Positions 49,137-51,643 are shown, counted from the first letter of the stretch. The stretch is 64,000 nucleotides of DNA from Candidatus Eremiobacteria bacterium (GCA_963737065.1 CAVTRC010000001.1:2304001-2368000); one strand, 5' to 3'. A program made the numbers and translations. Notes: a model not told the origin generated them from the sequence alone.

Positions 49137-49703
49137 TTGCTCAAGGGCTTTGTTCTCGGCATCGTTGCCGTCATCGTGATCGGGCTGATTGCGGCGTATG
49201 TCGGCATCACGCAGGGCCTCCTGATTCCAGCGAACGCCGACGCGCGCCCGGGCAAAATGGAAACGTGGGCGGCTCGCGTGTCGCTGCGCGCGACCTTGCG
49301 GCGACAAGCCTCGCGCAGTCCGAATCCCTTGCCGACGTCAATGCCCAATCTGCTCGACGGCATCAAATTGTACGGCGAAAACTGTTCGGTTTGCCATGGT
49401 GTTGCGGACGGACGCGCGAGCACGATTGCGCGCGGGCTCTATCAAAACGCGCCGCAACTCGCCAAAGACGGCGTGGAAGATGATCCGGACGGTATTACGT
49501 ATTGGAAGATCTATCACGGCATCCGGTTGACCGGTATGCCGTCATTCGGGGCAGCGCTTTCCGACAATCAAATCTGGGCACTTTCGCTCTTTCTGAAACA
49601 CATGGATAAACTTCCGCCGCAAGCAGAACGAGCGTGGAAGAATTTGAAAAATCCCGCACCGGCTGCGCCGGCGAGCGAGCACTCAAAGAAAGGCGGGCAG
49701 TAA
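49137..49703 (+). CDS. Membrane-anchored c-type cytochrome
   Basis: CSVCH heme motif, GIRLTGMPSF axial Met; TTG start with GGGAGG RBS. Confidence 0.88.
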   Translation: MLKGFVLGIVAVIVIGLIAAYVGITQGLLIPANADARPGKMETWAARVSLRATLRRQASRSPNPLPTSMPNLLDGIKLYGENCSVCHGVADGRASTIARGLYQNAPQLAKDGVEDDPDGITYWKIYHGIRLTGMPSFGAALSDNQIWALSLFLKHMDKLPPQAERAWKNLKNPAPAAPASEHSKKGGQ

Positions 49704-49704
49704 G

Positions 49705-50667
49705 TTGCTGATCGATGCGAGAACCGAAACACATATGCTAGACGTGGAACGGCTCGATCTGCGCGGGTTGCCCGTGTGGGAGCGTCCGACGCGCGTGCTC
49801 GACGTTTTCGACCGCTTGCCGCCGGGGCAAGCCGTCGTGTTCATCACCGAAAACGAGCCGCGTGGTCTAGGCACGCGCATCGAAGAGTCGCGCAAGCATG
49901 AATTGATTCTCGATACCCGGCGCGTCGGCGATCGTGAATGGCACGTCGTAATGACGCGAGCAGCCGTTGAGACCGATGCGCCCTCGCCGATGGGAATTCT
50001 CAAACGCTCACGCGTGTTCTCTCATCTCGACGAGGTCTCGCGTAGCAAGCTCGCCGCCGTTGCCACGCTGCATACCTCGCGCCGCGGACAGACCGTCGTC
50101 ATGGAAAACAGCGATTGGCCCTTCATCGGCGTCGCATTCGAAGGCGTCTTCGCGCTCGCGAGCCGGAACGGCACGTCACGCCAGCGGATCTTCCACGAAA
50201 TTTTTCCGTACGAAGTCTTCGGTGAACTCGAACTCTTCGACGGCGCGCCGACGATCGGACGCATCATCGTGCTTTCGAAAGCTGCGCGCTACTTGCGCTT
50301 GCCGAACGATGCCGTGTTGCAAATTGCCGAGCATTCGCCGAAGCTCTACGAGGCACTCGGCCGCGTTGCGGCGCAACACGCGCGCGACCTCGCCGAGTTG
50401 CTCGTCAATCAGAACACGATGCCGATCATCGCGCGTATCGCACAGGTGTTGCTGCCGTACGCAATGCCCGAGAAGGGACTGAGCGCGGCAATGCCGCCGC
50501 TCCCGAACATGACGCAGGCGCAGATCGCAGCGGCGGCCGGAACGGTAAAGGAAGTTGCTGCACGCGCGATCGCGGAGCTCGAATCGAAGAATTTACTCCG
50601 TCGCGAACGGGGGCATGTCCGGTATCTCGATCGTCAGGGCTTGATCGATCTGATACGCGAGTCGTAA
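49705..50667 (+). CDS. Crp/Fnr regulator with N-terminal DUF2249-like domain
   Basis: LDLRGLPVWER N-domain; FGELELFD; TQAQIAAAAGTVKEVAAR HTH. Confidence 0.85.
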   Translation: MLIDARTETHMLDVERLDLRGLPVWERPTRVLDVFDRLPPGQAVVFITENEPRGLGTRIEESRKHELILDTRRVGDREWHVVMTRAAVETDAPSPMGILKRSRVFSHLDEVSRSKLAAVATLHTSRRGQTVVMENSDWPFIGVAFEGVFALASRNGTSRQRIFHEIFPYEVFGELELFDGAPTIGRIIVLSKAARYLRLPNDAVLQIAEHSPKLYEALGRVAAQHARDLAELLVNQNTMPIIARIAQVLLPYAMPEKGLSAAMPPLPNMTQAQIAAAAGTVKEVAARAIAELESKNLLRRERGHVRYLDRQGLIDLIRES

Positions 50668-50679
50668 GGCCGCCGCCAA

Positions 50680-51438
50680 TCACCGCGGTTCGCGAGGTTT
50701 CGAGAGACCCAACCAAAACGTTTCAACGCCCGCGAGCATCACTGCGCCCGCGCGGATGAAACGTGCCGGCGAGAATCGCGGCTTTGCAAACGCGGCCGCG
50801 AGTTCGTCATCGGTGTGCGCAGCGTGCTGGTCCTCGAGCGCGTCGTGCCATGTCCAGAATCCCAGCGGGAGATCGGGCCGGCGCGTCGCTTTGATCGTGC
50901 GAAGGCCAAGAATCAACTGTTTCCAAAATCCGGCCGCCGCCCAATGTTCGATCGCGTACGACGCGCCGGCAGCAGTTGATTCATCGTGCGAGCCATACCA
51001 TTCCAGAAGCGTGTCGCAGAACGCGAGCGTCTCGGCCGAACCGTGTTCGCGTTTGCCGATCTCCTTCCACGTCAACCCGATCGATTCGGCGAATTGCACG
51101 AGCCATTCGAAGTGTCCGGCTTGAAACCTGAACGTGCCGCCTTCCACCGATCCGGTCGGCGAGAAGCCGACGCCGAGCTCATTCAGCAAAATCTCTTTGC
51201 CCGCGTGGTAACTCTCGAGGTCCGGTGCGTTGATGCACTTGCGCAATTGCGCCTCGATGAAGAGATGACTGAAGACTGAGAATTGCACCGTGAAGTGGCG
51301 CAGTTCGTCGTCGCTCGCGGCGCCCGTCGCAAACCACTCCGTGTACGGATTATGCTGTACGATCGGATGCGCTCCGATTTCCTCGTCGACGGCGCATCGA
51401 AACGCGTCGACTGCTGATGTGGGCGCTGCTGCGATCAT
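50680..51438 (-). CDS. Heme-oxygenase-like diiron (HDO; TenA/PqqC/CADD fold) enzyme of unknown function
   Basis: HP N-terminus; ligand pattern NE...H(FEW)...E(HW)...HxxxExxH; AGGAG RBS. Confidence 0.8.
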   Translation of the reverse strand: MIAAAPTSAVDAFRCAVDEEIGAHPIVQHNPYTEWFATGAASDDELRHFTVQFSVFSHLFIEAQLRKCINAPDLESYHAGKEILLNELGVGFSPTGSVEGGTFRFQAGHFEWLVQFAESIGLTWKEIGKREHGSAETLAFCDTLLEWYGSHDESTAAGASYAIEHWAAAGFWKQLILGLRTIKATRRPDLPLGFWTWHDALEDQHAAHTDDELAAAFAKPRFSPARFIRAGAVMLAGVETFWLGLSKPREPR

Positions 51439-51469
51439 GATCGATCTCCTGGTACAAAACAAGAGCAAT

Positions 51470-51500
51470 AAAAAAGCCGCCTCGCTGTCGGCGAGGCGGC
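51470..51500 (-). terminator. Intrinsic terminator (attenuator) upstream of the HDO gene
   Basis: GCCGCCTCGC-CGACA-GCGAGGCGGC-TTTTTT on the minus strand. Confidence 0.88.
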
Positions 51501-51524
51501 GTGTGTTCTAGCGGACGGTATTCG

Positions 51525-51602
51525 CTAAGACAACGGCAACCTGCAGCCGACTTCATCGAAGCGGCTGTAATAATACGAAACGGTTGCGGGCTGTCTGGAC
51601 AT
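51525..51602 (-). CDS. Tyr-rich attenuator leader peptide MSRQPATVSYYYSRFDEVGCRLPLS
   Basis: ATG..TAG of 25 codons with TAT TAT TAC, between promoter and terminator; below the ORF-track cutoff. Confidence 0.78.
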   Translation of the reverse strand: MSRQPATVSYYYSRFDEVGCRLPLS

Positions 51603-51614
51603 GGTTTAGCGAGG

Positions 51615-51643
51615 AGTCTAACATGAAGGACGCGGCAATGCAA
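51615..51643 (-). promoter_or_regulatory. Sigma70 promoter of the leader/HDO unit
   Basis: TTGCAT-N17-TAGACT with extended TG, 12 nt before the leader ATG. Confidence 0.7.

Follow-up and report, generated by a model that had tools for sequence, protein, structure and literature searches.

The locus studied here lies on the minus strand of the window, i.e., the whole stretch of 64,000 nucleotides that we analysed (GCA_963737065.1, CAVTRC010000001.1:2304001-2368000), which belongs to a Candidatus Eremiobacteria genome (G000; 3.08 Mb in 2 contigs, 95% complete). It comprises an HDO gene, encoding a predicted heme-oxygenase-like dimetal oxidase of 252 aa (P0001; 50680..51438, ATG at 51438), which is monocistronic, the following gene being convergent, and whose Shine-Dalgarno sequence AGGAG (51446..51450) stands 7 nt before the ATG. 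Ahead of it we found, in the direction of transcription, a sigma70-type promoter (51615..51643) with a -35 box TTGCAT (51643-51638), a 17-nt spacer and a -10 box TAGACT (51620-51615) provided with an extended -10 TG (51623-51622); a leader ORF of 25 codons (51525..51602), whose homologs in relatives count 19-29 codons; inside this ORF, the control codons Tyr-Tyr-Tyr (TAT TAT TAC, 51567..51575); by folding, a 1:2 hairpin (anti-antiterminator or pause hairpin, 51544..51567); a 2:3 antiterminator (51487..51551); and an intrinsic 3:4 terminator (51470..51500), whose stem (51500-51476) has 10 bp, 9 of them G-C, and is followed by six T (U6 in the RNA). The initial annotation had called the promoter, the ORF with its Tyr codons, the hairpin, the terminator, the AGGAG and the HDO start, and all its coordinates are correct. 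It had also drawn an antiterminator from the complementarity between GTCGGC (51551-51546) and GCCGAC (51492-51487); this pairing exists, as part of a longer structure. Indeed, folding with the Tyr codons occupied by a ribosome gives, as the antiterminator, an interrupted stem of about 65 nt (-27.7 kcal/mol) with an inner hairpin (51528-51508) instead of a 6-bp helix.

At -63.2 kcal/mol (z -4.8), the fold of the 171-nt leader is more stable than that of all 200 shuffled sequences. The leader is also one of five candidates, and the only Tyr-rich one, returned by a genome-wide script that searched the 3.08 Mb for a short ORF combined with a strong terminator and a biased codon run. The window promoter stays below the threshold of a consensus promoter scanner and its call rests on conservation, the pattern TTG-n3-N16..18-TAnnnT being found ahead of 54 of 58 related leaders. 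The leader ATG is located 12 nt past the -10 box in the window, and 7-12 nt past it in relatives, so that the leader ORF, which has no Shine-Dalgarno sequence, is near-leaderless. Rfam covariance models assigned no leader family at gathering score and gave three chance-level matches (E 5.1-9.6). On the other side of the HDO gene, cytochrome c and DUF2249-Crp/Fnr genes converge on it (window 49137-50667, plus strand), and this neighbourhood, together with an upstream serS, is kept in several relatives, including G071. Among 57 HDO loci of relatives, no conserved downstream partner or reductase gene was present.

The family carrying this leader belongs to the Vulcanimicrobiota (Eremiobacterota). 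From 79 HDO loci, we set aside 4 broken genes, 5 loci cut off upstream, 6 duplicates and 3 loci from other phyla, these last having no leader, and kept 61, of which 58 leaders were parsed by script and three, with G-U pairs in their terminators, by eye. A Tyr leader followed by a terminator is present in 60 of these 61 distinct intact loci. The run contains 3-6 Tyr codons in 55 of 58 leaders, its length shifting by whole codons, and both codons are used (TAT 155, TAC 112, over the 58 leaders), Tyr making up 267 of 1453 leader residues. Regardless of the length of the run, 50 of 56 leaders have 16-17 nt between its end and arm 2, a constancy which is what a ribosome footprint would require. Outside the run, the peptide is variable and its stops are scattered over codons 19-29, the alignment showing that the RNA motif extends beyond the early ones; the terminator is near-invariant (alignment A2). 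The lone exception is found in a TyrA-positive genome (G033, HDO 54% identical), where the leader (L094:6444, minus strand) is rich in Val, Leu, Ile and Thr from its ATG and has its Tyr codons one frame off; this may reflect the decay of a Tyr leader, a changed specificity or an error in the assembly. We also observed that the longest runs (5-6 Tyr) occur in most of the genomes having both tyrA and HDO (L034, L040, L044, L046, L051-L053, L055 and L063), which may reflect ancestry only, since these are close kin.

Folds were then computed for the transcript ending at the terminator loop, the part covered by the ribosome being masked. In the window leader, placing any Tyr codon in the A site gives a probability of 0.85 that the terminator arm is paired upstream, against 0.15 for a ribosome located at the stop. 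Across 57 leaders, this upstream pairing exceeds a probability of 0.5 in 57 with the ribosome on the last Tyr codon, in 56 on the first, in 2 at the stop and in 36 on naked RNA. This comparison of folds, proposed as a check at the outset, thus gives the antiterminator with a ribosome on the Tyr codons and favors the terminator at the stop. Because 36 of the 57 leaders form the antiterminator even as naked RNA, the 1:2 hairpin matters in the window without being the conserved part, and the conserved switch would be the covering or freeing of arm 2 by the ribosome. The claim of a 1:2 hairpin therefore holds for the window, where this hairpin dominates the naked RNA and is even lengthened in the minimum free energy structure by pairing of the leader 5' part with its 3' part, but it does not extend to most relatives. 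The antiterminator was also compared with shuffled sequences: 3 of 100 were as low in the window, and, when region 2 was shuffled in the 57 leaders, at most 5 of 100 matched in 45 of them (median z -2.5), the other 12 failing to beat this limit of 5/100. When the full-length RNA is folded, the equilibrium lies with the terminator, even if a ribosome occupies the Tyr codons, and the switch must therefore be kinetic, i.e., co-transcriptional.

The initial annotation had suggested aligning the regions upstream of HDO homologs for conserved Tyr runs and covarying stems; the runs are indeed conserved, but covariation in the antiterminator core is thin. RNAalifold, applied to the 2:3 region of 53 leaders (50 of the 57 scripted ones plus L012, L014 and L057; L013 and the near-duplicates L031, L048, L052, L055, L068 and L075 being left out), gave 8 consensus pairs with one two-sided change and a covariation term of -0.13. 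The core pairs are invariant in alignment A3, and a core that hardly varies neither proves nor disproves pairing; in 17 of 57 leaders, this core has 4 bp only. Pairs changed but kept in the 2:3 stem were seen in L013 (by eye) and otherwise only in leaders of aromatic operons, those of G071, G033, G037 and G072. The spacing, the conservation of the frame and the ribosome-masked folds all back the 1:2 / 2:3 / 3:4 layout of a classical attenuator that had been recognized in the window, and the conserved Tyr run, together with these computed folds, argues for the proposal that stalling on Tyr codons opens transcription. We are thus highly confident, from sequence and folding, that the leader is a ribosome-mediated transcription attenuator opening under Tyr starvation.

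Its working can be pictured as follows. Judging from the distance to the -10 box, transcription would start a few nt before the leader ATG. When Tyr-tRNA is ample, the computed folds suggest that the ribosome passes the Tyr codons and covers arm 2 up to the stop, letting the terminator end the transcript at about position 51470. Under Tyr starvation, the ribosome would stall on the Tyr run and cover arm 1, leaving arm 2, 16-17 nt further on, free; the free arm 2 would capture the 5' arm and loop of the terminator, and the polymerase would read into the HDO gene.

In E. coli, the short leaders trpL, hisL and pheL each have a series of control codons, alternative 1:2/2:3/3:4 pairings and a U-tailed terminator, and each controls a single biosynthetic target. 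The HDO leader resembles them by its control-codon run, its alternative pairings and its U-tailed terminator. It differs by being Tyr-only and near-leaderless without a Shine-Dalgarno sequence, by its phylum (Vulcanimicrobiota), by its long interrupted antiterminator with an inner hairpin, and by its target, an HDO gene. The initial annotation knew of no Tyr leader controlling an HDO gene, and our literature search, whose coverage left out most subscription journals, likewise found neither a Tyr-only leader before such a gene nor an HDO acting as a Phe hydroxylase. Older comparative surveys of attenuators, by the Gelfand and Lyubetsky groups, may list Tyr-containing leaders before aroF-tyrA. 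In Corynebacterium glutamicum, the accessible text on aroF reports a Phe-Tyr-Phe leader (PMC4046766), and attenuators are predicted before tyrA operons in the available part of another study (PMC1173090). As described there, Tyr codons control aromatic synthesis in these leaders, as in the HDO leader, and the leaders are mixed-aromatic or uncharacterised and stand before shikimate or prephenate genes; unlike them, the HDO leader is Tyr-only and precedes a non-shikimate enzyme. Mycobacteria have attenuators made of leaderless polycysteine sORFs (10.1101/834739, from the accessible portion), whose short ORF, like that of the HDO leader, lies right at the mRNA 5' end and contains a homopolymeric codon run; the HDO leader differs from what is described there by an ATG some nt inside the transcript, by an intrinsic terminator and by its amino acid. 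A Cys-rich leader also exists in our genome, outside the window (G000:C1, about 1930210-1930360, plus strand). It has five Cys in eight codons, a promoter, a terminator and a near-leaderless build, and precedes a gene that we named APS/PAPS-reductase-like by eye; from its sequence it is a probable cysteine attenuator.

We fetched 11 heads of the PDT-DAHP synthase operon, and 10 of them have a leader of the same layout as the HDO leader, with W/F/Y codons, the eleventh (G046) being without one. These attenuators (L087, L089, L090, L092, L093, L097 and L099-L102) stand before a PDT-domain/DAHP-synthase fusion operon with aroH, tyrA and pheA. The HDO leader may thus be a Tyr-only offshoot of the W/F/Y attenuator heading the aromatic operon in Vulcanimicrobiota relatives. 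In such related leaders, the amino acid encoded corresponds to what the gene behind the leader produces, and Tyr is therefore the expected product of HDO. That the target gene supplies the Tyr which is sensed would be a strong genomic inference.

Gene content points in the same direction. In our genome, neither HMMs nor tblastn with the proteins of relatives matched TyrA, PheA, PhhA, AroH or AroQ, and AroC, two DAHP synthases, TrpA and HppD are kept, hppD standing elsewhere than the HDO locus. In the family set of 91 genomes, 15 (from 9 genera) carry an intact HDO behind a Tyr leader, and TyrA passes the cut-off in none of them; among the 73 HDO-less genomes, it does so in 57, the remaining 16 being without TyrA. 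The other three are G033 and G071, both TyrA-positive, the HDO of G071 being split into three fragments at the locus matching that of the window, and G018, with a broken HDO and no TyrA. Among 48 further HDO genomes, TyrA was found in 11, one of them broken, which makes 11 of 63 genomes with both TyrA and HDO (10 intact tyrA). The exclusion between TyrA and HDO thus appears strong but incomplete. These counts come from related genomes, many of them incomplete, and we attach no P value to them. They include genomes flagged as unpublished (G014, G034, G047, G057 and G025 in the HDO-less set; G113 and G120 in the tallies of 151 genomes; G155/L072, for one leader and one TyrA-negative genome; G367/L185, for one of seven Acidimicrobiia loci), on which no conclusion depends. 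AroH is present in 13 and TrpA in 47 of the 63 HDO genomes, and AroQ in none of the three that were tested; since AroH is mostly lost while TrpA is kept, it is the prephenate branch in particular that has gone, making prephenate an unlikely substrate. PhhA was found in none of the 151 relatives. In G072 and G017, aroH is joined directly to pheA, tyrA being gone from between them.

Some genomes show other peculiarities. In family f3 (32 genomes), TyrA is found in 24 and prephenate dehydratase (PF00800) in none, which may point to an unrecognised route to Phe. Three near-complete genomes (G030, whose aromatic leader is L099, G011 and G045) have trpA and no TyrA, PhhA or HDO; G030 retains the aromatic attenuator and PDT. 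In our genome, a pterin-binding (MetH-like) match is split into three pieces in different frames (G000:C1 2266145-2266851), where relatives have one frame of 1170-1240 codons, either through frameshifts or through assembly errors.

HDO homologs of a sister clade occur in another context. An Acidimicrobiales homolog (61% identity) sits between a divergent Lrp/AsnC gene and hppD. We examined 81 sister-clade loci, i.e., the best 80 of 185 metagenome loci and this Acidimicrobiales query locus. In this set, hppD is present in 70 of 81 loci, directly downstream in 69 (immediately downstream in 62 of the 67 loci whose sequence runs on for 300 nt or more beyond the HDO gene), and the divergent Lrp/AsnC gene in 58 of 81. 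Sister-clade proteins show a median identity of 57%, have 83 of 102 invariant positions in common with the Vulcanimicrobiota clade, and group with it in a quick tree (SH-aLRT 94). Among 251 Acidimicrobiia genomes (GTDB), HDO is found in 7, touching hppD in all 7, and PhhA in 18 others; this non-overlap is uninformative, about 0.5 overlaps being expected (7 and 18 of 251). Among the 18 phhA loci, phhA touches hppD in 2 and stands next to an Lrp gene in 6, and in G279 and G326 it lies opposite hppD, at the same position as HDO in G223. The available part of one study places asnC genes divergent from phhA and describes Phh as the entry step from Phe to Hpd (PMC1173090). TyrA-family genes are retained by most sister-clade genomes, matches being obtained in all 6 that were tested (two are weak), as a catabolic role would predict, and the HDO genes of this clade have no Tyr-rich ORF upstream (L071; six upstream regions). 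The sister-clade HDO would thus be used catabolically, in the order Lrp, HDO, hppD.

As for the protein, its AF2 model (pLDDT 95) adopts a seven-helix heme-oxygenase-like fold. The sole Pfam match is PF14518 (E 1.4e-5, below cut-off). The best fold match is CADD (Z 21.3, rmsd 2.4, 211 aligned residues, 16% identity), further ones being HrmI, BesC, FlcD and UndA. The predicted ligands E87/H109/E164/H198/E202/H205 are invariant in 120/120 close homologs, 81/81 and 18/18 sampled homologs, and four of the six align with the CADD/BesC motifs; in the accessible text of a review, the HDO ligand set is 3H/3C (PMC13108848). P0001 is, on its modelled fold, a member of the HDO superfamily (3H/3C), for which use of a dimetal site and O2 is predicted. 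It resembles CtCADD/NePabS, BesC, HrmI and UndA by its fold (Z 19-21) and 3H/3C ligand set, but is only 12-19% identical to them, and in the available text none of these is reported to hydroxylate an aromatic ring. The reactions listed there for HDOs are C-C cleavage, N-oxygenation, desaturation, rearrangement and self-sacrifice, aromatic hydroxylation being absent from the accessible text of this March 2026 review (0 matches for "aromatic"; PMC13108848). Searches with P0001 returned one irrelevant match in the PDB (single sequence), only generic TenA/PqqC-like clusters in a structure atlas, and only "hypothetical" or PqqC names in a cluster look-up. No redox partner gene was found linked to HDO. 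Two homologs carry extra domains, P0123, which is eukaryote-like, a cytochrome b5 domain, and P0148 a methyltransferase domain; the cytochrome b5 fusion fits a reductant-fed monooxygenase. Longer forms gave 3 matches; two apparent fusions, P0279 (HDO-HppD) and P0280 (HmgA-HDO), have the look of neighbouring genes read through after frameshifts, and we rejected them as true fusions and counted them as adjacency.

A switch answering Tyr starvation in TyrA-less cells, combined with a place ahead of HppD, leaves one fitting reaction, the para-hydroxylation of Phe (or phenylpyruvate). From these genomic contexts, we consider it probable that the HDO clade is a pterin-independent diiron phenylalanine 4-hydroxylase, serving Tyr synthesis in Vulcanimicrobiota and Phe breakdown in Acidimicrobiia and, probably, in other phyla. 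With two Fe, O2 and an electron donor, it would convert imported or home-made Phe into Tyr, a step that, given the gene content and context, would replace TyrA/PhhA. P0001 has no Biopterin_H domain (PF00351) and would work like the aromatic amino acid hydroxylases without being one of them. PhhA (PF00351), the pterin-dependent type of enzyme which is the only one known to date for making Tyr from Phe, offers the closest parallel: it 4-hydroxylates Phe, as proposed here for HDO, and stands in for TyrA in some bacteria, PAH supplying Tyr in Dyella and Legionella, which are without TyrA, and occurring alongside TyrA in Echinicola, according to the accessible part of the GapMind study (10.1101/741918). 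Like the sister-clade HDO, it sits by hppD/hmgA and an Lrp/AsnC regulator in the contexts described. PhhA and HDO differ by an unrelated fold and cofactor, HDO having seven helices and a 3-His/3-Glu site.

Other readings would keep part of this scheme. With the same attenuator and role, the substrate could be phenylpyruvate, converted into 4-hydroxyphenylpyruvate and then into Tyr by transamination or into homogentisate by HppD. This fits the loss of TyrA, the sensing of Tyr and the coupling to hppD equally well; yet HDO occupies the slot of PhhA, which takes Phe, and the characterised HDOs mostly use fatty or amino acids, in the accessible text of the review (PMC13108848), which leaves phenylpyruvate a small chance. 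The enzyme could instead recover Tyr, or HPP, from halogenated, nitrated or O-methylated tyrosine. Such recovery would also switch on in Tyr starvation and feed HppD, and it is compatible with TyrA being present in 11 of the 63 HDO genomes; we consider it unlikely, as it leaves unexplained both the clean deletion of tyrA between aroH and pheA (G072, G017) and the swap with phhA beside hppD. A direct replacement of TyrA by an O2-dependent oxidative decarboxylase of prephenate or arogenate, with UndA-like chemistry, would account for the TyrA exclusion, and HDO decarboxylases exist, as stated in the available text (PMC13108848). But prephenate is probably not made in most of these cells (50 of 63 HDO genomes are without AroH, and AroQ is found in 0 of 3 tested) and the hppD context does not fit, so that this reaction is highly improbable.

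The logic of the switch could also be reversed: a surplus of Tyr would cause a TnaC-like peptide stall and thereby induce an HDO with a catabolic task, or the leader would be a general sensor of translation stress. The catabolic context of the sister clade and the separate location of hppD in our genome would suit this proposal; it is nonetheless very unlikely, since the peptide is unconserved beyond the run, the RNA motif carries on irrespective of where, between codons 19 and 29, the peptide stops, termination is favored once the ribosome has reached the stop, and homologous leaders head biosynthetic aromatic operons. Nor do we give more than a slim chance to a CADD-type self-sacrificing p-aminobenzoate synthase consuming its own Tyr, as Tyr27 of CADD is described to do in the accessible part of PMC9522330. 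CADD is the best fold match, Y32 of P0001 aligns with CADD Y27, and our genome has folP-like genes and only one chorismate-binding gene. Against it, TIGR04305 scores 18.5 bits for a cut-off of 200, 7 of 120 close homologs have Phe in place of Y32, the HDO-less G010 has the same folate gene pattern while the HDO-bearing G003 has two chorismate-binding genes, no folate neighbours were seen at HDO loci, and turning on a Tyr-consuming suicide enzyme during Tyr starvation would be illogical. Finally, the Tyr-rich peptide could be a RiPP precursor modified by the HDO, a short Tyr-rich ORF standing directly before an oxidase and HDOs being able to modify ribosomal peptides, according to the available text (PMC13108848). 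The strong terminator between the ORF and HDO, the free variation in length and C-terminus of the peptide, the absence of any transporter or protease nearby and sister-clade HDOs without such an ORF make this the most improbable reading of all.

The attenuator would represent a new, Tyr-only and near-leaderless variant of classical attenuation, none having been found described for Vulcanimicrobiota in our literature search, and it acts as a functional label linking an unannotated and widespread enzyme family to tyrosine supply. If the hydroxylase function is true, this family would provide a non-homologous alternative to pterin-dependent PAH, and the first ring-hydroxylating HDO, one operating in core amino-acid metabolism. 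It would also close the apparent Tyr auxotrophy of many soil genomes, explain an unassigned gene in Tyr-degradation operons and offer a pterin-free Phe-to-Tyr biocatalyst. The wider HDO family need not have one job, and its distant members may perform other chemistry. In the context of those that we looked at outside the two clades (L073, L074 and two plasmids), no Tyr leader or hppD was noted. On a Gloeothece verrucosa plasmid (L214:7893-10788), an HDO homolog (49%) lies beside a 2OG-Fe dioxygenase and a cysteine-desulfurase-like gene, which suggests a role in secondary metabolism.
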